Shown: positions 2,637-20,287 of the stretch, piece after piece
Layout: every line of letters begins with the position of its first letter
Numbering within the stretch: position 1 is the stretch's first letter
Notes under the pieces: generated by a model
What the model was told of the DNA's origin: nothing
What the model saw: the letters and a program-made list of their open reading frames with translations, nothing else
Databases searched by the model: none
Assembly: GCA_964437795.1 (NCBI GenBank)
Contig: CAYTIC010000008.1
Coordinates: forward strand, 61,407 to 125,406
Length of the DNA stretch: 64,000 bases
Direction of reading: 5' to 3'
Source: an uncultured Dehalococcoidales bacterium
GTDB lineage: Bacteria > Chloroflexota > Dehalococcoidia > GIF9 > UBA5629
Program-made: the position numbers and the translations under genes

Positions 2637-2678
2637 CTCTTCTTGTATCTAATTCAAGTTCATTTCTTGATCATCTGC

Positions 2679-3329: not shown

Positions 3330-3393
3330 TGCGGGATTATATTGTTCATATAGGGGTTAGGGGGCTTGAAGCTATTTTTACATATTTAGGTAG

Positions 3394-4440: not shown

Positions 4441-4845
4441 TCAGGGACTCTTGCTCTTATGCTTGGCGTTGCCATGTCCCATGTGTTTAGATAATGGCTC
4501 TTCACATTGGTGGACGACATTTCCTGTGACGGGATCGGTTATCACTTCACTATACCAATCATGCTCCCTATCGATCACCCTGCTAAGATGCATCCACTTA
4601 TAAATCTTTCGAAACAGGTCAGCTCCTGAAACTTCTTCTATGAAGGGCTTCTTGTCACCTTGGTGCTTAGCTTTCATGCCTGCCCTAGTTGTTATTCCAA
4701 TACACACATGAGATGTGACTTTAAAATGTCTCGAGGTGGAACCACACACAGGGCAGGGAGTACGCTGACTCGGTTGGATATCGCTTCTTTCCCTCAGTAC
4801 CAAGCTGCATTTACCGCACTTCACGATTGCATTGTCGTCTGTCAC
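4441..4845 (-). CDS. Zinc-ribbon protein. It is co-transcribed downstream of the RM gene and may act as an accessory or controller.
   Basis: A CxxC...CxxC motif (KCGKCS...CPVCGS). There is a 27-bp gap after the RM ORF on the same strand. Confidence 0.4.
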   Translation of the reverse strand: MTDDNAIVKCGKCSLVLRERSDIQPSQRTPCPVCGSTSRHFKVTSHVCIGITTRAGMKAKHQGDKKPFIEEVSGADLFRKIYKWMHLSRVIDREHDWYSEVITDPVTGNVVHQCEEPLSKHMGHGNAKHKSKSP

Positions 4846-4872
4846 CGGCCTCCCATAACCTTCAGCTTCTGA

Positions 4873-7482
4873 CTAGTAGGATTCAAGCAGTTCCTTTACC
4901 TCTTCTGGTAGCGTTGTTAGACCTTCGACTTCGAGGGCTATTGCCGTGGTTCTATTCCGTAGCTGAGCTCTAGTCTGCACGGTCTCTCTTGTTTCTATGG
5001 CTATCCTCTGGCAAACCTGCGCATCTTTCGGAATCGGCAGCAACACTTCGAAAAGGCGTTTGCCCAATGTATCGATGATATCGCGTGTGAACTGCTTTGC
5101 TCTCATTTGCCGGCGGACGATGGGGGCATTCAGAAGGGCAAGCAATAGGTAGGGATCAAGCTCATCCTTTTTATTCACACGAATCTTATAGATGCCGCCG
5201 CAGTATAGTATTTTGACGTCGTGCTCCGTCAGTATGCAGGAGATGCCGACGAGATAAGTACCATCACGGACAACGAAGATGTCTTCTGCTTGCACATCTT
5301 GCTTGAGCCGATAGCTCTCGTAAAGCTCGATGCTGACATTCTGCTTGGGATCGGTCTTGAGTTCCCAATTCGAGATGTCGGAGGTGCGTATGAACGGGAT
5401 TGGCCCCGTGCCATACGCCATCTTTCCTATTTCTATTCCCGTCTTCCATGAGATGACTTTTTGTTGAACGAGGTCGGCCAAAGATATTAATTTATGCGTC
5501 GAAGCCAATGCTTCGAGATCGCTCTCCAGCTTTGGATCGTAATATTTAGGTATAAATATGTTATTTCTGATATCTTTAATGTGGTTGACAAAGCCAAGTC
5601 TATCCCGCTCCGGGTTCTTTCCATATTTGTAAATGTCGTTGAATCGCTCAGCAACGTGTGGGATATCATCCAGCAGCATCTTCCTCCCAAATTTGTCGAT
5701 ACGATATGTTGGATTTGCCCTGGAATCATGTCCACACCACTTGACGTCAGCCATGAAGATATCGTAGTTCTCTCCTCTGGTTGGTGGCGAGTTCTCAAGG
5801 AACATGACGCAGACTTTTGCATGGGTACCACCTTTGCCACTTGTCTTAAAAAGAGCCTCCGGCATGGAGACTATTCCCTTTATTTTTACGTTACGGCAAA
5901 GATAATTGACAACATATTCGTACGTTGGCATTCCAAAGACAGCTTCTGGGAGGACGATACCCATTCTGCCGCCAGGCTTCAAAAGTTGGAGGCACCTCTC
6001 GAGGAAGATGATCTGAGGTGGTTGGTCTTCATGAATTGCAGTGGTCTGGTTTATTTGTCCCGTGTCCCTATTGAGCTTCCATTTATGCCCAAGTTTATAT
6101 TGCGATAGGAGGCATTCTTCCTTCACGACGATTTTCTTCCCCATAGGAGGATTTGTCAGGAGGACATCGAATGCTCCTAATCCGACTCTCTCTTGCATCA
6201 CTGGCGGCCAATCACGCGGCAAGACAAGACTATTCTCACAAAAGACGCCGCCTCGACCATCACCTACTATTGCCATGTATGCTTTTGTCACTTTAGCGAG
6301 AAAGCTATCTTTGTCGATGCCAGTGAAATAACGTGTTGCTACTTCTACTTCCCGTTTAAACAGTTGTCGCTCGCTCCAGCCCTTTTTCTGCGCTTGTGCT
6401 TTAAGTCCAGCCCAAACGTGCTCCAGAGCCACGATCAAGAACCCACCTGATCCGCAGGCAGGATCGGCGATGCTTTCCCCAGCTTGAGGATCAAGGATGT
6501 CTACCATCATCTTTATCACGTTCCGTGGAGTGAAGAACTGCCCTTCGCTGCCTCTCAGAGCTGGTCCAATAAATACCTCAAAGGCATCTCCGACAGCGTC
6601 TCTGTCCGCTTCCATGATAGAGTAGTTCTGTAGTTCTCCGACGACATATAGGAGACTGTCTGCATCTAGTTTGATCTTCTCCTCCGGCGAGAATACATCG
6701 TCGAATGTCGCTATTTTTACCTTCTCAAATAACTCTAGGATTCGTTTTTGCACTGCTGTTGCATTCTCTCCGATCCCTGCGCGGAATTGGACCATATCCT
6801 CTGGGCCGCATGTTTGTTCGTCGAGTATCTTGCAGAACAATATGCTGATTATCTCTTGAGCCAGCGCTTCGTCACGCGTTATGCCAGTAGTCATGCCCGC
6901 GAGATGATTACGGATATCACGGAAAATCACCTTCAGATTTGACGGTTTTGTTAGGTCTTTACGTTTAAAAAGTCCGATGTCTTCTACGCGCTGCCCTTTA
7001 CGCGGAATGTTTGGTAGATCTTTCCACTCGATATGGCCGTCTGTGTGGCGTATCTTGAGTATGTAGGCGTGCTCGTGACCATTGTACCACGCACCTATGG
7101 TCGCTGGGCTCATCTCAAGATACAGCTTCAACTGGGCTATGCCATCTCGTCGATTTTTTTGCTTGCACTCCACGATCGTCGTCAGTTTCGACTCTATATG
7201 GTCAGAAGATTTGAAGACAGCTATATCAACGGGGTAGGATTTCTTTTCATCTGACGGACGCTTGCGGACGTGGAACTGAGGATGAGTCTGGATTTGGTTT
7301 TTATCGTAGCCGTAGTCTTCGACCAACCTCCGGGCGAATATCTGCACTGCTTCGATCTCCTCAGCAGTGGCCTTAGCTTCTATACCTGAGATATAATCGA
7401 TGACGTAGCCGGATTTAGGTTGCGGATCGGATTGACTGGCATCCGGGACAAGTTGGCTGACTATCTTCTTGCTACGACTCAT
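4873..7482 (-). CDS. Single-chain restriction-modification enzyme (Type IIG/IIB-like). It has an N-terminal PD-(D/E)xK nuclease-like domain (HSDR_N-like), a gamma-class N6-adenine DNA methyltransferase and a C-terminal HsdS-like target-recognition domain.
   Basis: Nuclease-like motif VDIAVF...IVECK. MTase motif I FFTPRNVIKMMVDILDPQAGESIADPACGSGGFL and motif IV TNPPMG. The C-terminal about 200 aa resemble a Type I specificity TRD. The internal ATG at 7482 (MSRSKK) is the likely start. No separate hsdR or hsdS gene is nearby. Confidence 0.65.
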   Translation of the reverse strand: MSRSKKIVSQLVPDASQSDPQPKSGYVIDYISGIEAKATAEEIEAVQIFARRLVEDYGYDKNQIQTHPQFHVRKRPSDEKKSYPVDIAVFKSSDHIESKLTTIVECKQKNRRDGIAQLKLYLEMSPATIGAWYNGHEHAYILKIRHTDGHIEWKDLPNIPRKGQRVEDIGLFKRKDLTKPSNLKVIFRDIRNHLAGMTTGITRDEALAQEIISILFCKILDEQTCGPEDMVQFRAGIGENATAVQKRILELFEKVKIATFDDVFSPEEKIKLDADSLLYVVGELQNYSIMEADRDAVGDAFEVFIGPALRGSEGQFFTPRNVIKMMVDILDPQAGESIADPACGSGGFLIVALEHVWAGLKAQAQKKGWSERQLFKREVEVATRYFTGIDKDSFLAKVTKAYMAIVGDGRGGVFCENSLVLPRDWPPVMQERVGLGAFDVLLTNPPMGKKIVVKEECLLSQYKLGHKWKLNRDTGQINQTTAIHEDQPPQIIFLERCLQLLKPGGRMGIVLPEAVFGMPTYEYVVNYLCRNVKIKGIVSMPEALFKTSGKGGTHAKVCVMFLENSPPTRGENYDIFMADVKWCGHDSRANPTYRIDKFGRKMLLDDIPHVAERFNDIYKYGKNPERDRLGFVNHIKDIRNNIFIPKYYDPKLESDLEALASTHKLISLADLVQQKVISWKTGIEIGKMAYGTGPIPFIRTSDISNWELKTDPKQNVSIELYESYRLKQDVQAEDIFVVRDGTYLVGISCILTEHDVKILYCGGIYKIRVNKKDELDPYLLLALLNAPIVRRQMRAKQFTRDIIDTLGKRLFEVLLPIPKDAQVCQRIAIETRETVQTRAQLRNRTTAIALEVEGLTTLPEEVKELLESY

Positions 7483-7871
7483 CTTTGTATATCCTAATGC
7501 CCGTCTGTTGCTACAGTCTTCTATATTTATGCACCAGTTGTCAAGCGCACTATTCCCTACATGGTGCGACAACACTGCCCTCGGTCTTCAAGACAGGGGG
7601 CACGATCAAGGGGCATGTTTGTGACGCTGGTTTGGCGATGAGGAAGTGACGGTCTTCCTGGCAAAAAACCGTCAGTAATTAAATTGGGCTGTTGATGGAC
7701 AGGTATCCTTCCTACCTGGGGTGGCCTCGATCATCGGAGGGTAGTATCTATCGCAACCATAGGCCGAGCACACACCGGGATTGCTTCCTCGAAAAAGGCG
7801 ACATAAACGCGTAGAACCGCTGGATATGCCGGGTTTAAAATGCCGATAAAATGCCGACGAGGTGAAAGATC

Positions 7872-8156
7872 GTGGAAAAAGATATAGTGTTAATCGAATG
7901 GATCGACAGCAGGGGCACGGAGAGGTGGGAATACCTCGACGAGATAGAGCCGATGCTGCCCGGCGAATGCCTTTCGGTGGGGTTCATCATCGAGGGCAAC
8001 AGCGATTATACAACAATAGCAATGGCGGTCACCGATACCCAGGTGCTTGCCCGGATGACAATACCGGCAGGCTGCATCAAAAGCGTAAAGAATCTTGGTA
8101 CTTCATCTGGCAGTAACCGCGATGCGGATAGAAAATGCCCTTATAACCGCAATTGA
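7872..8156 (+). CDS. Hypothetical protein
   Basis: A GAGGTG ribosome-binding site lies 7 nt upstream of a GTG start. No recognisable domain. Confidence 0.35.
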   Translation: MEKDIVLIEWIDSRGTERWEYLDEIEPMLPGECLSVGFIIEGNSDYTTIAMAVTDTQVLARMTIPAGCIKSVKNLGTSSGSNRDADRKCPYNRN

Positions 8157-8172
8157 CAGCAGCTACCGATAA

Positions 8173-8394
8173 TTAGTGGTTGATGTTGATGCCGTCGTTG
8201 CGGATCACGTCCATATGGCTTTCCAGCACAGCTTGCTTTTGCTCAACGGTGGTAATGCGGGCGTTCATGACATAGAAGAGGGCCAGCACCAATATGAGGG
8301 TTATGATCTGTATCACGATGCCTGCTACTCGTAGGGCAGAGAGTGTCTTCTTATCCACAGTAGCCATATTATAACTAATCAACAGCGTAGACAC
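8173..8394 (-). CDS. Small membrane protein
   Basis: 73 aa with one strong TM helix (VAGIVIQIITLILVLALFYV). Confidence 0.3.
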   Translation of the reverse strand: MSTLLISYNMATVDKKTLSALRVAGIVIQIITLILVLALFYVMNARITTVEQKQAVLESHMDVIRNDGININH

Positions 8395-8416
8395 TCAATT
8401 GGTTGTTAGTGTTAGG

Positions 8417-8437
8417 CCGTCTACACTGTCCACAGTG
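8417..8437. repeat. Inverted copy of the 9-bp GTAGACAGT-type repeat (two units)
   Basis: CTACACTGTCCACAGTG is the reverse complement of TGTGGACAGTGTAGACGG. Confidence 0.6.
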
Positions 8438-8690
8438 ACCAGCTCGCCGCAGAACTTAACGCAGTCATGTGGTGATGTCCGACCGCTGCCTTTCATGGTG
8501 GGTTGGTCGGGCCTCAACTTTTTGCGCGGATGGCACCGGTGGTGGCCAAGGCGTGGCCGGGGGCAGGGGTAGGGGTGTGGTCGGTATGGGGCGGAGCGGG
8601 TCAAGACATCCCATGCTTGCAGGGTCTTAACGCAATAACAAAAGTCCCCTTGAACCCGTATTGGAAACAAGGGGACTTTTGTCCGGTGCC

Positions 8691-8846
8691 TTATTGTTTA
8701 TTTACAAATGTCTCGCGATGGTCATCAATGCACACCAGTTACAATTCATGTCCCACCAGGCGCAGCGCTTCTGGATGCACTCTTTGTAACTTTCATCTGC
8801 TTCATCAGGTAACGCCAGTATAGCCGATGCTAATAACGGGCATACC
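8691..8846 (-). CDS. Small Cys-rich protein, 51 aa, not in the ORF track
   Basis: Hand translation gives MVCPLLASAILALPDEADESYKECIQKRCAWWDMNCNWCALMTIARHLYKQ. A GGAGGTG site lies 4 nt upstream of the ATG. Confidence 0.3.
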
Positions 8847-8897
8847 ATGTTTCACCTCCTGTATTTATTTTGTGGTTAGTAACGTATGTATAAACGT

Positions 8898-8920
8898 CGT
8901 AGACAGTGTAGACGGTGTGA
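8898..8920. repeat. Direct copies of the 9-bp GTAGACAGT-type repeat (iteron-like), immediately 3-prime of the primase-helicase gene
   Basis: GTAGACAGTGTAGACGGTGTGA. The same unit is tandemly repeated at 11654-11689. Confidence 0.6.
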
Positions 8921-8966
8921 GCGCCGTGGCGAGTGCCGCATCTTCAGCGTTCACACCACAGTCCAG

Positions 8967-10775
8967 TCAGCTGACGCTGTTTATGCCGTCCATGTTGTCC
9001 ATGTCATCCGTATGCTTTGGTAAGTCCATGATTGTATATTTGTTGTCGTTGTCTTTGTCTAGCAGTCCGGACTTAAGCATACTGGAGATCAGGCTCCTGA
9101 TTGTGCTTGGGTTACGTCCCAATTCGGTAGCTATTTCTTTGGGCGTGATCGGGCCTTTCTCCCGGATGACTTCCAATATGGCCTTTCTTTCATCGCTCAT
9201 GAAGTAGTCTTCAGCGTTACCAAGCACAGTCCACGACGCATCTTTGTTATGTTCGACAGCTATCTCCTGCTCTTCTCTGATATCGCGGCCAGTAATGTAA
9301 AGCTTAGCTAGTCTACCTTTGACTCGCTGAAGTACGAACACGTTGTCGACCCCCGCAGTGAGACCAAACGAGCCGCTGACTGCCTCCAACGGGTCTTCGG
9401 ATTTTTGTTTACGAAGATGGTGGACACCGAGTATTGCGATATTTCTCCTCGAAGCCAACTCCTGAAGGGGCCTCATCGCATCGTAATCTTCGGCATAGAC
9501 CGTTGATCTACCTTTACGTATGATAACCCGTTGCATTACATCGATGACTATCAATTTGGTATCTGGGTGTTCATCGAGGAATAGTTCGATCTGTTCGACG
9601 CAGCCCGTTTCCATGTTCGGCCACCTTATCTCAAAGTACAAGTTATCTGGGTCGGCATAGTTCTCTCCTTCTAAATCCCATGTGCCATCCTCCTGCTTTA
9701 TCAGCTTACCTTTAATTCCGATTTGCGTATTACGTTCCTGCAGCCGCCTTAGATTGTCTTCCAAGGCTAGATACAATACGTCTCCAGAACACGGTAAATT
9801 TGGAGCTATCCCTGCTTTAAACGGCCCGGAGAAACTCAGAAAGTCACGCCCCAGGGCCACACTTCTTGCTATCAATAAGGCTAGCCAGCTTTTGCCAACC
9901 TTGGGCCTGCCAGCTAAGATTGAAAGCCCCACTGGCAGCAAACCTTCGTAAACCCACTGCGTTTCCGGCAGTTCCATCACAGCAAGTTCTGCCGCTGAGA
10001 TGATATTGGGCTGGTAGAAATCCCTGACGACAATACCTGCATATTTCCAAGCACTCTCTACCTTGGCCATTGCTTCAGCCTCGGGGAAAGGCGGGGTACA
10101 TTTCGCTGCTGCTATTAACACAAGATACTCGATCGCAGGACGATCAAGCCCCTTACTTTTGAGGAAGCAAGCATATCGAAAGAGCTTGTCATCCCGTTGC
10201 CCTTCTGGTACGCCATCTAGCACGGTCACAAGGGCTCTATCCTGTGTCTTAGCAGCCTTCATCGGATTGATCAGCTCCTTAGGGAACTCGGCAAGTTCTA
10301 TCTCATTAGGAGCCTTGCCCTCCGCAAAACGATATTTTTTACCGGTTTCCGGATGCACGCTCGGGGGAGCGGCCACGATCCCACCCTCGGCGCGGATATC
10401 AACATGAGGCAAAATATTAGTGCCTGTCTTAACTCCGCTGTCCGGGTAACGATAGTAATAGTGCCAGCCACCACCGCCAGTTTCGACTGTAATAGTGTCC
10501 GGCAAGGTGATTCCCGCCTGCTTGAGGCTTTCCTTTCCTTCTAATCCGTCTACATCAACTACGGCCAATCCGGACACTGGCCCGGTCACTATGCCGATGT
10601 TGGGAGTTCGGCCTGACCCCCACCAGACTTTGTGTTGCGCGGATTCACTACGTTGAGTCTGATACCGCTTCCATCTGCCGCGCGGCCTCTTGCCATCCAG
10701 TGGTATCACGCACCATTTAAGCCACCTATACTGGTTAACAACGTGAGGAAGAATACTGCTATCCCAATTAGCCAT
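8967..10775 (-). CDS. Plasmid/phage-type replication protein: an N-terminal bifunctional primase-polymerase (prim-pol) domain, a RecA-fold AAA_25/RepA-like helicase domain and a C-terminal winged-helix region.
   Basis: AVVDVDG and GGGGWHYYYRY prim-pol motifs. Walker A GRPKVGKSWLALLIA. A C-terminal DNA-binding-like region. Confidence 0.75.
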   Translation of the reverse strand: MANWDSSILPHVVNQYRWLKWCVIPLDGKRPRGRWKRYQTQRSESAQHKVWWGSGRTPNIGIVTGPVSGLAVVDVDGLEGKESLKQAGITLPDTITVETGGGGWHYYYRYPDSGVKTGTNILPHVDIRAEGGIVAAPPSVHPETGKKYRFAEGKAPNEIELAEFPKELINPMKAAKTQDRALVTVLDGVPEGQRDDKLFRYACFLKSKGLDRPAIEYLVLIAAAKCTPPFPEAEAMAKVESAWKYAGIVVRDFYQPNIISAAELAVMELPETQWVYEGLLPVGLSILAGRPKVGKSWLALLIARSVALGRDFLSFSGPFKAGIAPNLPCSGDVLYLALEDNLRRLQERNTQIGIKGKLIKQEDGTWDLEGENYADPDNLYFEIRWPNMETGCVEQIELFLDEHPDTKLIVIDVMQRVIIRKGRSTVYAEDYDAMRPLQELASRRNIAILGVHHLRKQKSEDPLEAVSGSFGLTAGVDNVFVLQRVKGRLAKLYITGRDIREEQEIAVEHNKDASWTVLGNAEDYFMSDERKAILEVIREKGPITPKEIATELGRNPSTIRSLISSMLKSGLLDKDNDNKYTIMDLPKHTDDMDNMDGINSVS

Positions 10776-10794
10776 TGTATGAATCTCCTTTTTA

Positions 10795-11001
10795 TTAATT
10801 CTTAGCCATTAGATTTGTCTTGTACCAAATAAGCCGATCTGTATCTTCAGCCATTTCAAGTATAGATTCGATTGTGATAGATATCTGACCGCCCGAGCGC
10901 ACAAAGTCCAGTAGTCCCAATGTCGCCATCAGAGCAACCTGGGCAGCAGACACATTGAGCACCCGAGCCGTTGCTTCGACATCTATGCAGTATATTTCGC
11001 T
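10795..11001 (-). CDS. Small hypothetical protein, probably starting at a GTG with an AAGGAGG site, immediately upstream of the primase gene
   Basis: AAGGAGG-6nt-GTG. A 20-bp gap to the primase start on the same strand. Confidence 0.35.
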   Translation of the reverse strand, partial: SEIYCIDVEATARVLNVSAAQVALMATLGLLDFVRSGGQISITIESILEMAEDTDRLIWYKTNLMAKN

Positions 11002-11209
11002 CACAATAAACCTCCTTAATAACTCGTGTTTTGATTTCAATCGACCTTTAATATTCTTAAGGCATTGACAGCACCTGCGCAGGGTGTTATGCTTGAGACA
11101 TGACGATAATACGCTATCATTGTTTATTTCTATACAACTCTCTAATAATAATTATACAGGAAGATAAATCGCGTGTCAAGAGCGAATATGAACGTGAAGT
11201 AGGAGTTTT

Positions 11210-11641
11210 ATGAAAAAAGTCATATATAGCGATGAAATGAAGTACTTTGCTCTAAGTAAGCGAAGGGAAGGATTAGGTTGGTGGGATATTAGGAGGGCGG
11301 TGCAAGATAAGTTCAAGTTAGAGCCGATTCCAACCATCCGTGCGATGCAGCGATGGGAGGAGGTTCTTAATATCGATGAGCTAAGCGAGTCTGTAGCGAA
11401 GAACCTGGATATCAAGGCTCAGGCATCAGCAAGCACTGGGATGGTTGATTTAGCTGAGACTCTGTTGCATAGCTTATGGGGGACTCGGCATTTGGGCGAA
11501 CAAGTGGAGTATGATGGATGGAAGCATTTTCTATCGACTTTAGAACGCATCTGGGGCACCGAGAAGCTACGCGGATATGTCGGGAAATATCTGGCAGAGC
11601 GTGAAGGGCAGCCTGATTATTCACCCTCGTTGCTTGAATGA
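11210..11641 (+). CDS. Hypothetical protein (island gene)
   Basis: An AGGAG site upstream of the ATG. 143 aa with no recognised domain. Confidence 0.4.
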   Translation: MKKVIYSDEMKYFALSKRREGLGWWDIRRAVQDKFKLEPIPTIRAMQRWEEVLNIDELSESVAKNLDIKAQASASTGMVDLAETLLHSLWGTRHLGEQVEYDGWKHFLSTLERIWGTEKLRGYVGKYLAEREGQPDYSPSLLE

Positions 11642-11653
11642 TATACAAACCCT

Positions 11654-11689
11654 GTAGACAGTGTAGACAGTGTAGACAGTGTGAATGAC
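11654..11689. repeat. Tandem 9-bp repeat (TGTAGACAG x3 plus a partial unit) upstream of the integrase gene. It is either iterons or recombinase arm-type sites.
   Basis: TGTAGACAGTGTAGACAGTGTAGACAGTGTGAATGA. There are additional single units at 11725-11738 and an inverted partial at 11761-11770. Confidence 0.7.
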
Positions 11690-11887
11690 ATAATGCGCCC
11701 ACGATGGAGTAACTGCCCATCTATGGTGTAGACAGCCATTTTCTGTGTGTGTGTCCATGCTGTCTATAGTGTTTATACGTCCTGCTTTCTCATCCACCAA
11801 ACCGGCTGCCCTTCGAATGCTATTTCTAAACCTTCCGCCTCGAAGTACAATGTTTTTCAAGTACGGAAAGACGCTGGAGGTTATACA

Positions 11888-13021
11888 ATGCGAGGCTATA
11901 TCAGAAAACGAGGCAAAAACTACCAGCTGACCATATGGGTAGGTAAAAAGCCCGACGGGCGACCGTCGAGGCATTTCGAAACAATACGAGGAAGCAAAGC
12001 CGATGCACAGAGGAGACTCAGGGAGCTTCTCAGCGAGATCGACCGGAACACCTACACTGCTCCCAGCCATATGACGCTTGCACAGCTTCTCGACCAGTGG
12101 CTGGATGGATATTGCCGGACCAAGTGCTCTATGCGTACACAGGACAGCTATGAGTACCTTGTCCGGTGCCACCTGGTTCCGGCTATGGGGCATATCAAGC
12201 TTGATGAGCTGCAACCGCGCATTATCCAGAACTACTATGGCAAAGCATGTGAAAATGTGTCCAATCGCACGGTCTTACATACTCATAGAGTTCTGAGTCA
12301 GGCATTGAAGTGGGCTGTGAGACAAGGGTATGCAGGCAAGAACCCCGCTGAGCTAACTGACCCGCCCACACCACTGTATAGGAACATGACCACTTTATCG
12401 TCTGCTGAGGTTAGCCTCCTGCTGGAACATGCACAGGGTAATGACTATTATCCGGTCATCTATACGGCTATCTCCACCGGGCTGAGACGAAACGAGATAC
12501 TTGGCCTACGCTGGCGAGACGTTGATCTCCTCATGGCAAGCATATCGGTCAGCCAGGTTCTGTATAAAGGCAGGGGTAGAATCGAGTTCAAAGAGCCGAA
12601 GACTGAGCACAGCAGGCGCAGGGTAGCTATGACACCCAAGCTTGCCATCTATCTGAGGGAGCATAAAGAACGGCAAGAACAGTCAATGAGGAGGCCGCTC
12701 ACTCTTGATGACCTCGTATTCAGCCACCCCGATGGCACTCCTCTTGATCCCAGCACGGTAAGCCACAGCTTCAACAAGATCGTGAAAGCAGCGGGGCTTA
12801 AGGTCAGGTTTCATGACCTCCGGCATTCCTGTGCAAGCCTAATGCTGAGAGAGGGAATCCATCCCAAGATTGTCAGTGAGATGCTGGGTCATTCGAGCGT
12901 TGCGATCACGCTAGATATATACAGCCACGTTACCCCTGGACTTCAGGAAGCCGCTGCAAAAAGCCTAAACGAAGTGCTACCTGCTGGCGTAGCGGATGCG
13001 ATGCAAAACAGCGTCAAGTAG
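11888..13021 (+). CDS. int: Tyrosine-type site-specific integrase
   Basis: GGAGG site upstream of the ATG at 11888. A core-binding/SAM-like N-terminal region. The catalytic region has HDLRHSCASLML (H-x-x-R) and the tyrosine in LDIYSHV. Confidence 0.9.
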   Translation: MRGYIRKRGKNYQLTIWVGKKPDGRPSRHFETIRGSKADAQRRLRELLSEIDRNTYTAPSHMTLAQLLDQWLDGYCRTKCSMRTQDSYEYLVRCHLVPAMGHIKLDELQPRIIQNYYGKACENVSNRTVLHTHRVLSQALKWAVRQGYAGKNPAELTDPPTPLYRNMTTLSSAEVSLLLEHAQGNDYYPVIYTAISTGLRRNEILGLRWRDVDLLMASISVSQVLYKGRGRIEFKEPKTEHSRRRVAMTPKLAIYLREHKERQEQSMRRPLTLDDLVFSHPDGTPLDPSTVSHSFNKIVKAAGLKVRFHDLRHSCASLMLREGIHPKIVSEMLGHSSVAITLDIYSHVTPGLQEAAAKSLNEVLPAGVADAMQNSVK

Positions 13022-13054
13022 CAGACACAGATAATGACATCGACCCTTAAACGG

Positions 13055-13987
13055 TTACCTTGTATCTACAGGTGTCCCTAGCATCTGTTGGCTGTTGGCT
13101 GCAAATGACGCGTACTGGCATTCATGCTGGAGAAACAGGCCCAACTGGATCAATGATATATGGTGGTTCCGCATGTCATTGGCAGTGATCACTATGGTCA
13201 GCTTGTCTGCAAACGTCTTTTCGGAGCAGGCGGCAATGAACGATTTGATCATTTCATGTATTACCTCCTCTCTGGTTTGCTTTAGGCGTCCGAAACCTGT
13301 CCCAAGCACGGGCGCAACGAGGGACTCTTTCAAACCTCGTTGCCCAACAAACACCCACAGAGAGGCAAGGGCCTGTTGCAGGTCGTCGAATGTCACTGAC
13401 GCTACTCCATATTGGTTTATGTGCGCTATTGCGACGAAATAACCTGTACGATCTTTGGGATTAAGTCGAACGCAAGTCCCTATAGGGTATCTTCTCGATT
13501 TTCCTATACGTGTTCCAGCAAGGTCTCCGCCTACCAGTCCGCTCAGACAAGCGGACAATTCGGCATCAAGCTGGGTTTCATCACCATAGAAACGTCTTGT
13601 GAAAATTCCTTGGACACTTGCCTCAGCTATCATTTCCCTCGATATCCGTGTGTCAAAAGTAGTGTTCGAACCAACGATGAAGGCCCCCGAGAATCCAAGA
13701 AGATCACCGATAGCGATCTCGATAGTTGTATCGCGGCCATTGAGCTTGTGGGATACTGTCAACTGAGGTCTCCGCATAAGTCCCGCGATAATCAAGCCAA
13801 TGAGTCCAAAGTATATCCACTGACTACGAAGCCAGTCCGGGAGCTTTGTATTAGCAAAGAAAAACGTCGTGATCTCAACGAGAAGCCACAGCGCTCCGAA
13901 GGAACTGAGTATGGCTATCAGCGTTTTCCAGGAAATGATGTTCCTAAGCCATGTGATTATCCAGTACCAGGTTCTATTAATTATCAT
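13055..13987 (-). CDS. 2TM plus macro-like-domain protein, similar to ThsA of Thoeris type II
   Basis: Two N-terminal TM helices, then a domain carrying FIVGSNTTFDT and APVLGTGFGRL segments that resemble macro-domain motifs. It overlaps the upstream TIR gene by 4 bp. Confidence 0.45.
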   Translation of the reverse strand: MIINRTWYWIITWLRNIISWKTLIAILSSFGALWLLVEITTFFFANTKLPDWLRSQWIYFGLIGLIIAGLMRRPQLTVSHKLNGRDTTIEIAIGDLLGFSGAFIVGSNTTFDTRISREMIAEASVQGIFTRRFYGDETQLDAELSACLSGLVGGDLAGTRIGKSRRYPIGTCVRLNPKDRTGYFVAIAHINQYGVASVTFDDLQQALASLWVFVGQRGLKESLVAPVLGTGFGRLKQTREEVIHEMIKSFIAACSEKTFADKLTIVITANDMRNHHISLIQLGLFLQHECQYASFAANSQQMLGTPVDTR

Positions 13988-14487
13988 AGTCCCAAACGTG
14001 TGTATACTTCAGGTTTATAGTAGAATGGCCCGGTTTTACCTTCCTTACGGTAGGTTTCGTCACTGCTTGGCCAATTATCAAGAGCATATTGCATGATTGC
14101 TGCATTAAATGGTATATGAACCGCTAAAGCTTCTTTTGCCAAGGTCGGGCAACGTTCCTCATCCATTGCACGTTGCCCGTTAAGGTTCACTACTATTATG
14201 GGTAGAGTCCTAGATATGGCCTGTTCTATCTCCCATCTTACAAATTTCATGAGGTAACGAGTCCGCTCACCTGCTAATAAAATAAAGATTTTGGAATTCC
14301 GCATTCGCTCGGCCAATTGAGCTTTTACGGATGCTTCCTGACTCGAGTCTCTAGCTGTGTTAAGGTCGTGAGCATTATAGAAATTGAAGTCTATGCCGTC
14401 ATTTTGTTTCCATGCTTGCATAAGCCGATAATATGCCATGTCTATATCACCGTCGAACGAGACAAAAGTTTTATTACGGTACGGCAT
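13984..14487 (-). CDS. TIR-like (DUF1863/MTH538-type) domain protein, similar to ThsB
   Basis: An AGGAGG site 7 nt upstream of the ATG at 14487. KTFVSFDGDIDMAYYRLMQAW...FNFYNAHD...IFILLAGERT...FVRWEIEQA...LPIIVVNL fits the TIR-like fold with a conserved Glu. Confidence 0.6.
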   Translation of the reverse strand: MPYRNKTFVSFDGDIDMAYYRLMQAWKQNDGIDFNFYNAHDLNTARDSSQEASVKAQLAERMRNSKIFILLAGERTRYLMKFVRWEIEQAISRTLPIIVVNLNGQRAMDEERCPTLAKEALAVHIPFNAAIMQYALDNWPSSDETYRKEGKTGPFYYKPEVYTRLGL

Positions 14488-14691
14488 TATAATTGACCTC
14501 CTGAAGGATTTTGGTTGCGCTATCAAAGAAGTAATAGAAACATATAAATTTTGCTAATGCAGTCAGTGGGTTAAACCCATGCGCCCGCCAATTTGTCATG
14601 CCTCCAATGAAGTGCATGCGATTATTATAATACAGAATTATGTCGCATAGATAGCTCGCCAGAGTATTTGTATCTATTTGAAGCTCAAGCG

Positions 14692-14807
14692 TCAAACGAG
14701 CGCCAACCGGAAGTAGCCTCATATTGAGGTGCATGTAAGTGTATAGAAGTCGCTGATCTCTTACACACAGGGGGTCGCTGGTTCAAATCCAGCATCGCCC
14801 ACCATCC
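14692..14807 (+). repeat. 116-bp direct repeat whose 3-prime 45 nt are a copy of the tRNA-Val(TAC) 3-prime end (att-like site, copy 2)
   Basis: TCTTACACACAGGGGGTCGCTGGTTCAAATCCAGCATCGCCCACCATCC differs from tRNA-Val 1553-1600 at two positions. The upstream 70 nt are shared with copy 3. Confidence 0.8.
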
Positions 14808-14930
14808 CTGTTCTCCGATCGTGCCCAGAAAAGTCGTTACTTGATGGGTGAGGTATATGCAGGTGTTATGAAGAGCGTCATGGAAAGCGGCAGGGGAAAA
14901 GAATGGCAAGGCAGTTGGTAATGATGAAAA

Positions 14931-15608
14931 TTATCCGCGGAAGTCGGTTGATAGGAAACGTTCTATTCCATCGATCATATCTATGACCACTTCTTTGGTG
15001 TATTCGTCGAATTTTCCATGAGCTGCTGAATTACCGATATCTAGCCATGCTTGAATAAAACGCCACTGCGGTTGAGGGTACTTGTCTAGTTTTTTCAACT
15101 CATCATTTAGTGCTGATGCTTTTTGTTCAGCATCAATGTTTTCGCTTCGTGCTAACCGTTTGAGCGTATCTTCCAGTACAGTTCTAGCAAGAACAGCAGC
15201 AGGGTCTTTATATCCGTTTTGAGCCAGGTGCTTTGCTTGCTCCAAGATGGAATCAAAAAGGTCTCCAGCTATGATAAACTCCTGCCCGAGCAAATACCCA
15301 TTTTCTAGATCTGATAAAGCACCCTGTAATAAACCAACGAATTCGTAGACCTGGGAAGCAACTTCGATGCTTTTGGCCCCATCTTTTGGTATCAACTCTT
15401 CAAGATGATGGAATTGGGGGCTTTGTCTCCCAAATACCAGCTCAATAATATTTCGCGTACTGGCTAACCAACCGTGAAGTCTGACTTTGTCTTCACCTTG
15501 TATGTAACGAAAACCGTCAGATGTCTTTTCAAGTTTTGCTATAGTCTTGCCCTCAATGACCAACTCATTAAGCCGATCTGCATATCTCCGGTTTTTCATA
15601 CTAAGCAT
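14931..15608 (-). CDS. DUF4145-like domain protein (tentative), a candidate defence-associated protein
   Basis: The C-terminal region ...LARTVLEDTLKRL...WLDIGNSAAHGKFDE... resembles DUF4145, a domain seen fused to restriction enzymes. Confidence 0.4.
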   Translation of the reverse strand: MLSMKNRRYADRLNELVIEGKTIAKLEKTSDGFRYIQGEDKVRLHGWLASTRNIIELVFGRQSPQFHHLEELIPKDGAKSIEVASQVYEFVGLLQGALSDLENGYLLGQEFIIAGDLFDSILEQAKHLAQNGYKDPAAVLARTVLEDTLKRLARSENIDAEQKASALNDELKKLDKYPQPQWRFIQAWLDIGNSAAHGKFDEYTKEVVIDMIDGIERFLSTDFRG

Positions 15609-15748
15609 TTATTCTCCCCAGCTGATCTCCATTTCCAGGATAGGCATGATTTCAAAGCCTATGCACGGCTAGTGTTCTTTGATCCATTTTATCAGGTTTT
15701 CTTTCAGAAAAACTCGTTTTTTCAAAGGAAAAAATCTTCAAGGTGTTC

Positions 15749-16864
15749 CTATTGTATCTTCATTTTTCGCCCCTTCAAATGGTGCCAGTCTTGGTTAAGA
15801 AGCGCTCCGTATGCCAAAGGATTATGCTGAAATTGTAAGCGATTTTTCCTGCGGTAAATAGAGCGTGAGATAGCTGCTGGGATAGATGCAACGCCAACCC
15901 CCATAGTAATTGGTTCATTAGCTTGAATTCCCACCATCAATGAACCGCTACCTATTATAATTGGGAAGATATCTAAGAGTATTATGTCATGCCATGTTTC
16001 TTTCATATGAGTCGAAATATACTCAATTTCCTGATTCAATTCTTGAATAGTTAATTCTCTTTTTTCGTCACGATCCTTTCGATCAATTAGATTAGCCAGA
16101 TCAATAGATAATCCTTCAATATGGTCACGAAACCGGGCAAGTTCAGCATGATGTTTCCCCTTGAATTTTAAAATCTTACTTAGGCTCAGTTCATCCTTGG
16201 GAAAGGGCATTATGTATTTCAGTATTTCATTTCTCTGGTCAGTACGTTCCCCAACTGATTTTCTATTTCCACCTAGCAGACGAAAACAGGTTTTATTATT
16301 GGTGACAGGAGCACTATCGACTTCAGGAAGGCTACCGATATAAGTAGCAAGATATGTCATGAAAGCATCGGCTACCCATCTATCCATTTCATACCATGGG
16401 TAATCGGTGCTGACCGCTAAATTCATACGTACCAGTTCATCGGCAACAGAACTAAGCTTCTCGGCATGCACAGGGAACCTTTGAGATGCATTCTCTGTGA
16501 TCGGATTTCTTCGACTTTTAATTCTTCTCCTAATGAATTCTATAAAAGGTTTGCCAAACTCATCAGCATTATCAATGAGTTTATGAGGCTCTATGAAGTC
16601 AACTAGTCCTTCCTTCTTGAGTGTGGACATGTGTGGTAGCAGTCTCCGGCGATCATAAGCACACTCAGAAGGTACTATAGAACTTAACCGGTCCCAGTAT
16701 AATAGCATTAGATATAACCAGTCATTATCTGGAAGATTAATATACGGAAAATACAAAGCCTTAGTTCTCATCTCGTTACTGCCTCCGTAGATTAGCCGTT
16801 GCTTAGAAAATATTCTATCTGTTAATTCTTCGTATAGGGTAGTTCCATGTTTCACTATTGTCAA
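15749..16864 (-). CDS. Hypothetical 371-aa protein with no recognisable domain, upstream partner of the DUF4145-like gene
   Basis: Long ORF on the same strand, 140 bp upstream of 14931-15608, lying between att-like repeats 2 and 3. Confidence 0.4.
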   Translation of the reverse strand: MTIVKHGTTLYEELTDRIFSKQRLIYGGSNEMRTKALYFPYINLPDNDWLYLMLLYWDRLSSIVPSECAYDRRRLLPHMSTLKKEGLVDFIEPHKLIDNADEFGKPFIEFIRRRIKSRRNPITENASQRFPVHAEKLSSVADELVRMNLAVSTDYPWYEMDRWVADAFMTYLATYIGSLPEVDSAPVTNNKTCFRLLGGNRKSVGERTDQRNEILKYIMPFPKDELSLSKILKFKGKHHAELARFRDHIEGLSIDLANLIDRKDRDEKRELTIQELNQEIEYISTHMKETWHDIILLDIFPIIIGSGSLMVGIQANEPITMGVGVASIPAAISRSIYRRKNRLQFQHNPLAYGALLNQDWHHLKGRKMKIQ

Positions 16865-16876
16865 CTGCCTCCAAAA

Positions 16877-16991
16877 TCAAACGAGCGCCAACCGGAAGTT
16901 GCCTCATATAAAGGTGTAAGCAGCTACATAGTAGTCGCTGATCTCTTACACACAGGGTGTCACTGGTTCAAATCCAGTATCGCCCACCATC
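16877..16991 (+). repeat. Copy 3 of the 115-bp direct repeat ending in the tRNA-Val(TAC) 3-prime end (att-like)
   Basis: About 88% identical to 14692-14807. It ends ...GTCACTGGTTCAAATCCAGTATCGCCCACCATC. Confidence 0.8.
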
Positions 16992-17170
16992 TAAAAACAA
17001 AATGTCTCAAGTGAATCCTTCCTGTATGCGCTGTGTACATCATCGTTTTACCGGGGGCTTAAGAGGAAATAGTCATGTTGGTAATATCTGATACCAATGT
17101 AAATAATAGATAGCTCCCCAGCTCAACGATGAATAACCGGGGAGCTATTTACCGGATGTTCTTTGACAAA

Positions 17171-18283
17171 CTATAAATGGTTCTTGGGGCTATGCTTGAG
17201 CTCTTTTACTAACTTGGCTACCTTTTTCCATCTGAGTTTTTCATACTGACGCGTGCTGTGCTCCTCCCTTGATGCAAGGTAGCTTACCTCCTTTTGTAAT
17301 TTCCTGTAGCTTTCCAATCTGGATGGGTCAAAATCACCTTGATCGATAGCTGCTTTTACAGCGCAGCCGGATTCGAGGTTGTGGCTGCAATCGCTGAAGC
17401 GGCATCTTTTAGCCAGTGTCTCGATGTCGTGAAAGGCAGCTTGCAGATCTTCTTCTCCTGCCCACATCTGGATCTCTCTCATACCCGGTGTATCGATTAC
17501 CATGCCACCGCCGGGAAGAATGATGAGTTCGCGTTTGGTCGTAGTATGTCGCCCCATGCGGTCATCTTCGCGAACTTCTCCAATCTGCTGTTTCTCTATA
17601 CCAAGCAGGGCATTGATGAGCGCCGACTTCCCAACTCCGGAAGATCCCAGAAAAGCGGCTGTTTTCCCTCTGTTCAGGTAATTTTTAAGGGCATCTAACC
17701 CGATACGTTCCTTGGCGCTGACAGGATGAACTGATATACCAGGAGCAATAGTTTCAATGCTATGGGTATAGATATCAATATCCGTACACAGGTCCACCTT
17801 ATTGAGGACGATTACCGGAGTGGCTCCACTATTCCATGCAAGCGTAAGATACCGCTCAATCCTGCGAAGATTGAAATTTCTGCCGCCGTCCAGACCACTG
17901 ACAATGAAAACTGTGTCTATATTAGCTGAGACGATCTGTTCTTCGGTACGTGCGCCAGCGACTTTTCTGGAAAATTTACTCTTTCTGGGTAGCAAGGCAT
18001 GAATTGTGCATTTCTGTTCATTGATTAATGGTTTAATTACAACCCAATCACCGACAGCCGGATATTGTTTTTCAGCCTTGGCAAGGTGTCGCATTTTGCC
18101 CGTAACCCCAGCAGTTAATTCCCCATATTGACTGTATACCTGAAAAGCACCCTTAAATTCAGAAATGACTCTGGCAGGTACCGAATCGGGGATTTTCAAG
18201 GCGTGGAAGTTTTTCTGAAAAAACGAATCCCATCCAATATCCTGGAGGCTTATTGGCCGGGCATAATTTGAATTTATACTCAA
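17171..18283 (-). CDS. rsgA: Ribosome small-subunit-dependent GTPase A (YjeQ)
   Basis: OB-fold N-terminus, circularly permuted GTPase motifs (LNKVDL, GSSGVGKSALINAL, DTPG) and a C-terminal zinc finger CRFSDCSHNLESGC. Confidence 0.8.
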   Translation of the reverse strand: MSINSNYARPISLQDIGWDSFFQKNFHALKIPDSVPARVISEFKGAFQVYSQYGELTAGVTGKMRHLAKAEKQYPAVGDWVVIKPLINEQKCTIHALLPRKSKFSRKVAGARTEEQIVSANIDTVFIVSGLDGGRNFNLRRIERYLTLAWNSGATPVIVLNKVDLCTDIDIYTHSIETIAPGISVHPVSAKERIGLDALKNYLNRGKTAAFLGSSGVGKSALINALLGIEKQQIGEVREDDRMGRHTTTKRELIILPGGGMVIDTPGMREIQMWAGEEDLQAAFHDIETLAKRCRFSDCSHNLESGCAVKAAIDQGDFDPSRLESYRKLQKEVSYLASREEHSTRQYEKLRWKKVAKLVKELKHSPKNHL

Positions 18284-18586
18284 TTCTTTCTCCTTTTCGA
18301 AAGTAAGGTAATCAAGACTTTATCAGGCGATAAAGAAGCAACGGATTAACACCCCGCGGCTAACCTTGTCTTACTTCCTAATCAAGAGAAAAACAAAAAA
18401 GCCGTTCCCTTTGGAACAGCTAATAGTTCACTCATTCAAAACAGGAATATGGTATTTAGCTGGAAACCCGCAGGGGTGCGATATCCGCAGTTATTACGAT
18501 GGCAAGCATCAACAATCCTCCTTTATATTTATTCTATTGAAAATACTATCATTACTGTCCCGCGAATTCAAACTAATATTGATTGG

Positions 18587-18632
18587 AAATGTAAAGAATA
18601 TACGCTCGATCTTTTTATCCGGTCCAGCTCCC
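18587..18632 (-). pseudogene. Fragment of an excisionase/AlpA-like gene covering the 5-prime end only. It is a remnant of a further integrated element.
   Basis: AAATGTAAAGAATATACGCTCGATCTTTTTATCCGGT is about 90% identical to the 5-prime end of the gene at 2816-2860. No intact ORF. Confidence 0.5.
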
Positions 18633-18647
18633 TATTGTAATGATAGC

Positions 18648-18677
18648 CTGGTTCAAATCCAGTATCGCCCACCATCC
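18648..18677 (+). repeat. Copy 4: the last 30 nt of tRNA-Val(TAC) (att-like fragment)
   Basis: CTGGTTCAAATCCAGTATCGCCCACCATCC is identical to 1571-1600. Confidence 0.75.
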
Positions 18678-18900
18678 AAGGTAAAATTATTCTATTACTA
18701 TATATTCGGTTTTACCAAAACGAATAAATTAATCATTTTTCAACCGTAGTTTTGGTAATGTTATTACCTGCATAACTTGTCTATTTGCATAACAAAGAAC
18801 TGATATGTAATATATTGGATGGGACTTCTGGTTTTTACAAGTGGTGCGAAGGTGATGGACGACTTAAATTCATATATAATTTCTGGCGGGCAATAAGATC

Positions 18901-19239
18901 GTGAGTAAACTATCGTCAGAACGATGGCCTGCATATTTAATTGGCATAGGATTAGTTATCGCGATTACCTGTATTGGACTATTACTAAACTACTTGCCCA
19001 TTTTTGAACCTACCAATGTTGATATTCTATATCTTCTTATCGTTGCTATTTCGGCTGCTTATCTGGGAGTTGGACCGTCAATACTAATAAGTTTTCTTAG
19101 CGTATTTGCCTGTGATCTCTTCTTTATTAACCCTCTTTATTCAGTCACTGTTGCGAATGAAAAGGACAGTTTTAATCTACTCATTTTATTTATAGTTGCA
19201 ATGGCAATAAGCTTACTATCTCCTAAACTTCGCAGATAA
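18901..19239 (+). CDS. Stand-alone DUF4118-like membrane protein (the KdpD-type membrane domain)
   Basis: Three TM helices with a conserved pattern resembling the DUF4118 domain of sensor kinases. Confidence 0.45.
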   Translation: MSKLSSERWPAYLIGIGLVIAITCIGLLLNYLPIFEPTNVDILYLLIVAISAAYLGVGPSILISFLSVFACDLFFINPLYSVTVANEKDSFNLLILFIVAMAISLLSPKLRR

Positions 19240-19399
19240 ATACTATTATATATAACTCAATCGAGGAAGTGTCTGCCTAGGTCTGTCATATTATCCTTCT
19301 ATGAGTAGTTGTTGAAGAAATGGAATCAACTTTTTGCTCTCAAATAGGAGTTCAGGAACTGTCCATAATGCTCCACCATTTATGCTCCTTAGTGCTCTT

Positions 19400-19714
19400 T
19401 CAGGGCTTTTCTACGAAAAATATAAGCGCCTTATCTGATAGGACCCTGACTCTATGCTTATGTTCGGGGTTGTCGGGAATAAAAATGCCGTCGCCTTTGT
19501 GATAGGTTACGCTGCCCTTTTCGAATTCAAGTTCTACAATTCCTTCAATGACAAAGCCGGTATGCCCGTTCGTACACCAGTCCAGTGGGATCTCTTTTGA
19601 AAACTCGGCAAGGCGCAGGCAAACATTGTTTTGGATAAGGCATTTTTGCCGCAGGCCTTTTAACGGGTGTTCCCAATCCAGCTTATTAAAATCCGCCTTA
19701 TATTGAATTGCCAT
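19400..19714 (-). CDS. Cupin-domain protein
   Basis: 104 aa with a GHTGFVIEGIVELEF...YHKGDGIFIP beta-barrel cupin-like pattern. Confidence 0.55.
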   Translation of the reverse strand: MAIQYKADFNKLDWEHPLKGLRQKCLIQNNVCLRLAEFSKEIPLDWCTNGHTGFVIEGIVELEFEKGSVTYHKGDGIFIPDNPEHKHRVRVLSDKALIFFVEKP

Positions 19715-19897
19715 TATGTTCCCGTTACCTCCTTTTTCTTAATGAGAGCCTATTTTAAGGTTAGCTTAAACGTTATGGCTCTGCCTATTGTACGCTATCA
19801 CTCACCCTGTATAATATTGGAGGTTAGATGAAACATATCGGTAATGTTTTATTCACCGGGTGATTGGGATGATGAGGCAACAGATTAAAGGAGTTTA

Positions 19898-20287
19898 ATG
19901 GTGATGAGGAAATTATTAGTTATGGTAGGTGGCTCATTAACTATTTTATGGGGGATTGCTCATTTGATTCCCACCGGTTCTGTTGTCGAAGGGTTTGGCG
20001 ATATCTCAATTGACAACAAAAGAATAATCCTGATGGAATGGATAAATGAGGGATTGATATTAATATTCCTGGGAATACTGGTTATATCGGTTACAGCGCT
20101 CAGTTATAAAAATCTAAAATCCAGGAGAATCGTATTTATCTCAACATCGACCATGCTCATTGCCATGTCGGTGCTGTCGCTGTTTACCGGTTTCCAGATC
20201 GATTTCATTCCATATAAGCTATGCCCCGTCATTTTCTTGCTTTCGAGCCTATTGATATTGCAGGGTGCTTTTGACAGGGCAAATTAA
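19898..20287 (+). CDS. Hypothetical membrane protein with four TM helices
   Basis: Hydrophobic helices throughout. It lies upstream of the STAS-domain protein on the same strand. Confidence 0.4.
   Translation: MVMRKLLVMVGGSLTILWGIAHLIPTGSVVEGFGDISIDNKRIILMEWINEGLILIFLGILVISVTALSYKNLKSRRIVFISTSTMLIAMSVLSLFTGFQIDFIPYKLCPVIFLLSSLLILQGAFDRAN

Follow-up and report, generated by a model that had tools for sequence, protein, structure and literature searches.

A probable integrase-less mini-island with two independent cargo genes, in tandem with an integrative element at tRNA-Val(TAC) of an uncultured Dehalococcoidales bacterium

The stretch of DNA analyzed here (the window) comprises 64,000 nucleotides of contig CAYTIC010000008.1 (positions 61,407 to 125,406, assembly GCA_964437795.1) of an uncultured Dehalococcoidales bacterium. 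At the 3' end of a tRNA-Val(TAC) gene it contains an integrative element of 13.2 kb (E1, 1598-14804), directly followed by a much smaller unit of 2.2 kb (E2, 14805-16989), which is the subject of this paper. Our analysis indicates that E2 is probably an integrase-less mini-island bounded by attachment (att) sites, of the cis-mobilizable element (CIME) type, and a member of the same tRNA-Val(TAC)-specific family as E1. Its two genes, encoding a DUF4145 protein of 225 amino acids (aa) and a DUF6236 protein of 340 aa, are independent cargo and not a conserved pair. A first-pass annotation, made from the sequence alone, had described the unit as a miniature integrative cassette carrying a candidate defence or abortive-infection pair. 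The structural half of that description stands, given that the att repeats carry both arm sequences of E1 and that the backbone recurs at tRNA-Val in a related contig; the functional pair does not.

Attachment sites and the tandem array

The integration target is an intact tRNA-Val(TAC) gene on the plus strand (1522-1597; ARAGORN; Rfam tRNA, 74 bits), the last gene of a Val-Leu-Arg-Val tRNA cluster; an Rfam scan of positions 1000-20000 returned four tRNAs and nothing else. The last 27 nt of this gene (1571-1597) constitute the first of four copies of a core sequence, which start at 1571, 14778, 16963 and 18648 in the window (0 of 100 shuffles matched in the core search). The two cores that bound E2 (14778-14804 and 16963-16989) are located within direct repeats of 115 nt (14692-14806 and 16877-16991) that are 88% identical, are offset by 2185 nt and end in 46 nt of the 3' part of tRNA-Val(TAC), much as the first-pass annotation had reported. 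Repeat copy 2 (14692-14804, plus strand) consists of a 67-nt stretch that is not derived from the tRNA, the P arm (14692-14758), and the 46 tRNA-like nt (14759-14804). Copy 3, the attR of E2 (16877-16989, plus strand), has the same composition (P arm 16877-16943, tRNA-like part 16944-16989). The P arm is common to copies 2 and 3 and to an inner copy in the related contig L051 (z above 24). It was not found at core copy 4, and an exact search of IMG/VR with the P arm gave no match.

A second arm sequence, P', is found on the other side of the core. It was overlooked by an ungapped repeat finder and recovered by local alignment. The conserved motif of around 42 nt, GTATATG..GT.T.A...GAGCGTCA.GGAAAGCG.CAG, is common to the right flanks of copy 1 (1643-1683) and copy 2 (14853-14893), with a local alignment z of 8.5 to 8.6 (0 of 300 shuffles), also by blastn; the corresponding P' arms extend over 1598-1690 for E1 and 14805-14930 for E2, both on the plus strand and both at the left end of their element. 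The right flanks of the intact tRNA-Val genes in the contigs L053, L051 and L138 carry the motif as well, and it is absent from the right flanks of copies 3 and 4 (local alignment versus shuffles). Copy 1 is thus made up as B-core-P' (attL), copy 2 as P-core-P' (attP-like) and copy 3 as P-core-B' (attR). Together with the P' arm that follows it, copy 2 is an attP-like hybrid junction between E1 and E2. Since the left repeat of E2 is such a full junction, the array reads attL (tRNA-Val/core/P') - E1, 13.2 kb - P/core/P' junction - E2, 2.2 kb - attR (P/core). The presence of arms on both sides of the att sites implies two related elements in tandem, the second of which lacks recombination genes. 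The relation also follows from the sites themselves: the P arms are 88% identical and E2 has the P' motif in common with the left end of E1.

The tRNA-like parts of the repeats bear marks of their origin. In copy 2 the first pair of the T-stem carries a compensatory change, G14777/C14793 replacing A/T, which is the same allele as that of the intact tRNA-Val of L053. A different compensatory change, C-G to G-C and one pair further in, is seen in the inner copy of L051 (about 2260-2306). Given these changes, each displaced copy fits a former functional tRNA 3' end.

Between copies 2 and 3 there are just two real genes, both on the minus strand: the gene for the DUF4145 protein (14931-15608) and that for the DUF6236 protein (15749-16771). 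In agreement with the first-pass annotation, which had noted two same-strand genes and no integrase, a Pfam scan of E2 revealed no genes for an integrase, an excisionase or transfer functions. Of the genes for integrase, HTH_17 and PrimPol-AAA_25 that E1 carries, none is present in E2, and a scan of the unit for promoters and terminators gave no excess over shuffles. Upstream of the DUF4145 gene lies a backbone segment (15670-15722; alignments and blastn) that is common to E1, where it precedes the first gene (2688-2740), and to L053, L051 and L138. Homology of E2 to the long elements stops near 15723, around 25 nt past the DUF6236 stop codon, and judging from the alignments this point is the join of a left-end and a right-end module. 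In alignments, E2 has backbone segments in common with the long elements E1 and L053, and it may derive from a complete element through loss of the core modules.

The join between the two genes is no assembly artefact, considering that L044, an independent Logan contig of 2214 nt, matches 14775-16988 at 100% identity; two further contigs cover parts of the unit. Sequencing runs in which the identical unit is present are SRR13723394, SRR13723396 and SRR13723397. As the length of L044 is close to the 2185-nt period its circularity was checked, and its ends proved to be two different core copies with 2 mismatches, so that it provides no evidence of a circle. Three contigs from separate sequencing runs (L044, L045 and L046) all end at 14775-14777, the expected place of the last 31-mer in common with a G-C-type tRNA-Val core that has a different flank. 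The samples concerned may hold another junction with this core, belonging either to a related strain or to an excision product.

Recurrence of the unit, exchangeable ends and mobility

A second unit of almost the same size was reached via a DUF6236 homologue of 70% identity, on a 7.4-kb ENA contig (L138). In tRNA orientation, this contig contains a tRNA cluster (94% identical) with an intact tRNA-Val(TAC), the P' arm (78%), a gene for a protein of 248 aa, the shared segment (window 15670-15719), and then a stretch with the DUF6236 gene, the P arm and the core that is 79% identical over 1223 nt; the contig ends 6 nt past the core. The unit measures 2171 bp, against 2185 bp for E2. The 248-aa gene that takes the place of the DUF4145 gene shows no nucleotide or detectable protein similarity to it (hhalign probability with the 225-aa family 0.3%) and matches no Pfam or PADLOC model. 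Other combinations are found in related contigs. In L053, which is contig Ga0268278_1000593, a DUF4145 homologue (78% identical) lies directly 3' of the intact tRNA-Val. After it come the shared segment, a homologue of the Zn-ribbon gene at window 2976-3329, and genes for a PD-T4-6-like kinase, a DUF4238 protein and a methylase. In L051 and L049 the tRNA cluster (96-98% identical) is followed by a decayed island of 4 kb with a 3' fragment of an integrase gene, a P/core site, a DUF4145 gene, and the genes for AbiEii and AbiEi.

From the arrangement of modules in E1, L138, L053 and L051 it follows that DUF4145 is a gene of a left-end slot and DUF6236 one of a right-end slot. The left slot holds DUF4145 in E2, a 310-aa membrane protein in E1 and the 248-aa gene in L138; the right slot holds DUF6236 in E2, Thoeris in E1 and a 388-aa protein in L051. 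The end modules assort independently across contigs, and E2 brings both slots together. This makes the locus a clean case, in an uncultured Dehalococcoidia-like lineage, of single defence genes being parked and exchanged at both ends of a small integrative element family.

Of the family backbone, E2 retains only the two ends: on the left the P' arm, a single cargo gene (DUF4145/HEPN, together with the region upstream of it) and the short segment shared with the other elements, and on the right a single cargo gene (DUF6236) followed by the P arm. Modules for integrase, excisionase, replicase and restriction-modification are absent, having been lost or never acquired. The tyrosine integrase of E1 (11888-13021), probably with the HTH_17 protein (4037-4228), could recombine any two of the three att sites: copies 2 and 3 would release E2 alone, copies 1 and 2 E1 alone, and with copies 1 and 3 both would leave. 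For the exchange of left-slot genes, accretion would be followed by homologous recombination within the segment that the elements share. Considering the att architecture, mobilization of E2 in trans by the E1 integrase is plausible. Whether E2 is still competent for recombination we regard as a nearly balanced matter that leans slightly towards the negative.

Several observations weigh against this account of E2. The Logan contigs, which break at the cores, yielded no excision product, circle or empty site. With 12% divergence between the P arms of E1 and E2, the E1 integrase need not recognize E2. A candidate motif for arm-type binding sites, GAGCGNCAA, has 7 matches versus 2.3 expected, 3 of the 7 in arms, a mild over-representation that is at most suggestive of an arm-site motif. 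Moreover, judging from the alignments the module join between shared segment and DUF6236 may or may not stem from the same event in E2 and L138, and the unit in L138 would also be explained by vertical inheritance of an inert scar.

The last of these points leads to an alternative with a substantial, though minority, claim: E2 may be a decayed remnant that has become fixed in the chromosome and can no longer recombine, the repeats being historical footprints. The divergence of the P arms fits this explanation, as do two mismatches (one in the core of copy 2 and one at the variable-loop position of copy 3), the lack of an excision junction among the Logan contigs and the other decayed pieces at the locus, namely the integrase fragment of L051 and the armless copy 4. 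The similar unit at the same site in L138 is what vertical descent would leave. Nevertheless, both arms and the core have been retained in E2 as well as in L138, and the P arm is better conserved between them (87-88%) than the cargo (DUF6236 module, 79%) or the flanking chromosomal gene, which encodes a 302-aa protein (68%); the P' arm with core is 78% identical. In addition, the left-slot gene has been swapped between otherwise similar units, which implies continuing recombination at the backbone and argues against a scar.

It is far less probable, and in our view hardly credible, that the second repeat arose by local duplication of the right end of E1, or that contigs were mis-joined at tRNA-like repeats in what is a metagenome-assembled genome. 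The short-read contigs from three samples do all break at the cores, and linkage across the repeats is therefore not independently confirmed for this strain. However, the repeat copies differ at 12% of positions and include a compensatory variant in the tRNA stem, and each type of junction is present on independent contigs: P/core/P'-DUF4145 on L051, tRNA/P' and DUF6236-P/core on L138, and DUF4145-DUF6236 on L044.

Two independent cargo genes

The co-occurrence of homologues had been named beforehand as a check on the proposed defence pair. A hidden Markov model of the family of the 225-aa protein was run on 39 DUF6236 loci from species-representative genomes, within 10 kb of the DUF6236 gene; 80 metagenome loci with a member of the 225-aa family were inspected as well, and neighbours were clustered all against all. 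None of the 39 genome loci had a relative of the 225-aa family within that distance, and the clustering of their neighbours revealed no conserved DUF6236 neighbour of whatever kind. Eight further, closer DUF6236 homologues (44-70% identity) had other neighbours too, including MatE, HSDR_N_2, DUF429/PDC-S44 (in a region resembling an integrative and conjugative element (ICE) of Dehalogenimonas), BrxL, QatC-like and LmuB-like proteins. Among the 80 metagenome loci a DUF6236-like open reading frame was found once, and it was not adjacent. Thus, a conserved pair was not found in other genomes, and the unit as a conserved two-gene defence system was rejected.

That the DUF4145 protein and the larger protein nevertheless work as a pair in one cassette, as a two-gene defence or abortive-infection system, is improbable. 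In its favour, the two genes share one strand, with 140 nt between them, in a mobile unit within a defence-rich island. In the single metagenome locus mentioned (L110), the DUF6236-like gene lies 1.8 kb upstream of the DUF4145-family gene with two genes between them, and a ThsB-like TIR gene is next in the row. The 248-aa protein that replaces DUF4145 in L138 furthermore holds the string R-N-P-I-A-H, which fits the HEPN Rx4H pattern, and with it a pairing of DUF6236 with some HEPN protein in mini-elements stays conceivable; no homology was detected, however, between that protein and either the 225-aa family or the Pfam and PADLOC models. The counts given above speak against a pair, and so do the sizes of the two families, which in the same kind of search comprised at least 337 clusters for the 225-aa family and 58 for DUF6236. 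The intergenic spacer, moreover, contains the module join and the DUF4145 gene's own conserved upstream region. As independent cargo, each of the two genes would act alone. The nearest named homologues of both proteins are from Chloroflexota, Dehalococcoidales and Dehalogenimonas.

The larger protein had been described as one of 371 aa without recognizable domain, which turned out to be incorrect on both counts. It matches DUF6236 (PF19749, 33.2 bits versus a cut-off of 26.2), and although the open reading frame extends to a TTG at 16864 (371 aa), homologues and a database copy of the same protein begin at an internal ATG, so that the gene runs from 15749 to 16771 on the minus strand and encodes 340 aa. 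The protein aligned end to end with 47 homologues, some of which are named 'DUF6236 family protein'. At E up to 1e-3 the family numbers 4173 representatives, or roughly 4,000 clusters when grouped at 50% identity, and the top 150 matches were mostly stand-alone proteins of about 300-380 aa, with some shorter fragments. The AlphaFold2 model (pLDDT 85.5) shows an N-terminal alpha/beta domain and a helical C-terminal half, with lower confidence for residues 260-300, and a hydrophobic segment is present at residues 263-281 (Kyte-Doolittle 19-residue mean 2.07). No structural relatives of the model were detected in PDB or BFVD, the family was not found on viral contigs, and the literature searched did not mention it.

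In 38 genomes the immediate neighbours of DUF6236 included DruE, JetC, pAgo, type I, IIG and III restriction-modification proteins and PbeA, as well as AriA/GajA-like ATPases, PglX and PDC-S54. This association supports DUF6236 as a stand-alone gene of defence islands and mobile elements. Three close homologues (L143 1744-2712, L141 1010-2071 and L042 6001-7023) were seen beside defence-type genes. One close homologue is located directly after brxL (PADLOC E 5e-243), another between a QatC/DpnII-MboI-like gene and the gene for an LmuB-like ATPase, and the homologue of Dehalogenimonas, in the ICE-like region, lies just before the DUF429/PDC-S44 gene. As a stand-alone protein, DUF6236 would have an accessory function, probably in defence, and is possibly membrane-acting via its C-terminal hydrophobic hairpin. 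Considering that gene neighbourhood is the sole ground for this function, which counts against it, we propose a defence role for DUF6236 only tentatively and with some doubt. Nevertheless, a large family with no structural relative and recurrent defence neighbours makes a reasonable candidate for challenge with phages or plasmids, and it is the best lead obtained here.

For the 225-aa protein (14931-15608) the DUF4145 assignment proved correct: the match to PF13643 (E 2.1e-7, residues 128-213) scores 31.3 bits, well above the curated cut-off of 23.1. Its structural model (pLDDT 91) predicts an N-terminal helical domain followed by a C-terminal four-helix HEPN fold. DUF4145 is a divergent HEPN family, and its motif is conserved in only around 80% of DUF4145 proteins (PMC3710099). 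In the 225-aa protein the motif reads W182-R183...W188-L-D190-I-G192-N193-A-A-A-H197, in which the canonical Arg is lacking. In an alignment of 40 family members H197 and N193 are invariant, as is the Gly five residues before the His (H-5), and a Leu at H-8 is nearly invariant. The catalytic Rx4-6H motif, or the variant of DUF4145/RAZR with an Arg 8 residues before the His, is thus not present. The sequence contains no cysteine, no PADLOC family matched at E up to 0.01, and searches of PDB sequences with the 225-aa family, the DUF6236 family and the 248-aa protein of L138 gave chance-level matches only. On viral contigs a single distant match to the 225-aa family was found.

The closest characterized relative in layout is RAZR/PD-T7-4, a single-gene abortive-infection RNase that combines a zinc finger with a DUF4145 HEPN domain and needs R146 and H154 (PMC13017515). 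Like RAZR, the 225-aa protein is small and stand-alone, has an extra N-terminal domain in front of a C-terminal DUF4145/HEPN domain and occurs in a defence-rich mobile context. In contrast, the N-terminal zinc finger of RAZR is of the Cys4 type, whereas the 225-aa protein, having no cysteine, cannot form a Zn ribbon and does not match the PD-T7-4 profile; and R146, which lies 8 residues before H154, corresponds to Leu in the 225-aa family, with Gly at H-5. Membership of RAZR is ruled out by the missing cysteines, the lack of a PADLOC match and the Leu at the position of the Arg, and the replacement of this required residue also renders RNase activity doubtful. In fold and context the 225-aa protein resembles HEPN effectors and it fails the catalytic-motif test; it would be a non-canonical HEPN-type sensor/effector or regulator without the catalytic Arg. 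The contexts of its family are mixed, either beside AbiE and methylases or with housekeeping genes (between moaA and rdgB-type genes). Its occurrence among housekeeping genes in some Dehalococcoidales, together with the absent Arg, leaves an RNase or defence role uncertain.

At seven metagenome loci (L081, L082, L083, L085, L086, L090 and L092) a gene for a protein of around 200 aa is located directly 3' of the gene of the 225-aa family, with anything from a small overlap to a 27-nt gap. This protein starts with a membrane helix, contains an R-N-T-A-V-H motif and matches several HEPN families below threshold. Judged by these features it is possibly a canonical HEPN partner for the family member that lacks the Arg. 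The window contains no gene for such a protein.

Taken together, one could combine the strongest forms of both parts of the analysis: DUF6236 as a new stand-alone anti-phage or anti-plasmid protein, with a fold that lacks a solved or viral relative and a C-terminal membrane-inserting hairpin, and the 2.2-kb units as live, trans-mobilized shuttles with two slots. We consider this combination unlikely. If true, such shuttles would depend on the integrase of a larger element at tRNA-Val for their transport, and genomes of Dehalococcoidia would exchange individual defence genes by means of them. The DUF4145 and DUF6236 genes merit separate testing, and not as a system.

The neighbouring element and comparison with known systems

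According to Pfam and PADLOC scans E1 (1598-14804) is a complete integrative element. From its left end it encodes the 310-aa membrane protein of the left cargo slot (1704-2636, minus), a Zn-ribbon protein (2976-3329, plus), an HTH_17 excisionase-type protein (4037-4228, minus), an N6-methylase of 900 aa with an HSDR_N_2 domain (4873-7575, minus), a PrimPol-AAA_25 replicase (8967-10775, minus) and the tyrosine integrase (11888-13021, plus). The right-end cargo slot is filled by a complete Thoeris-type pair (13055-14526, minus) that directly abuts the P arm; it consists of ThsA with a Macro domain and N-terminal membrane helices (13055-13987, minus; PADLOC E 7e-62) and the TIR-like ThsB (13984-14526, minus; E 1e-77).

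The Zn-ribbon gene (2976-3329, plus), which encodes a small B-box-like membrane protein, is 86% identical to L053 at the nucleotide level, and the stretch 4045-4326 that contains the HTH_17 gene is 91% conserved with the same contig. Both look like backbone genes of the element family and not like cargo. The region 1195-7618 of L053, an island adjacent to the DUF4145 homologue, encodes a PD-T4-6-like Ser/Thr kinase and a DUF4238 protein, as well as a methylase that has a specificity domain related to the 900-aa methylase of the window; by its appearance, this island is another version of the E1 family loaded with defence genes. Tandem repeats of 9 nt (GTAGACAGT, 2-4 copies) occur in E1 at 8886-8918 and 11641-11682, each after ATrTAyAAAC. 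The two sets flank the block that spans the PrimPol replicase gene and the sequence up to a point just upstream of the integrase gene; they could be iterons or regulator-binding sites of E1. Relatives of the integrase with 36-56% identity were present on five IMG/VR contigs; these carry no tRNA gene and show no nucleotide similarity beyond the integrase gene, which makes them uninformative on the arms.

On the other side of E2 lies core copy 4 (18648-18674, plus, 27 nt), which is flanked by neither a P nor a P' arm. The region between copies 3 and 4 (16990-18674) contains the gene for the ribosome-biogenesis GTPase RsgA (17171-18283, minus). Copy 4 may be an older scar, of which rsgA may be either the content, as a third and much older unit, or simply the chromosomal neighbour.

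P4-like satellites and integrative elements are defence hotspots, with variable defence cargo at fixed positions by the integrase and the att ends. The right slot of E1, E2 and L051, with Thoeris, DUF6236 and the 388-aa protein respectively, is likewise a site of variable cargo by an att end, although both the host lineage and the family of elements differ and a helper phage is not known.

The architecture of the array is not new in itself, as tandem arrays with integrase-less, att-bounded islands have been described. CIMEs were defined, and their origin by tandem accretion described, for systems such as ICESt1/ICESt3 of Streptococcus thermophilus (PMC5704250). E2 resembles these in that it lacks integration and transfer genes, has kept attL and attR, and forms a tandem, at the 3' end of the target gene, with a related element that does carry an integrase, the two being separated by a chimeric att site. 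However, neither E1 nor E2 has a visible conjugation module, and E1 looks integrative, PrimPol-replicating, and satellite-like or mobilizable. At 2.2 kb, E2 is moreover very small; its backbone is found again with one gene exchanged, and its putative mobility is here deduced from the sequence.

Another parallel is provided by Dehalococcoides, in which tandem genomic islands are found at ssrA, 15 of them without integration modules (PMC3146451). There too, the islands form arrays with direct repeats at their borders that copy the end of a small RNA gene, some islands lack an integrase and have been proposed to be CIMEs, and the host class is probably the same, Dehalococcoidia. The differences are in the target and the recombinase (ssrA there, tRNA-Val(TAC) and a tyrosine integrase here), in the repeats (20 bp there, 113 nt including an arm here) and in the cargo, which consists of reductive dehalogenase genes in the ssrA islands and of defence-type genes at the tRNA-Val locus.

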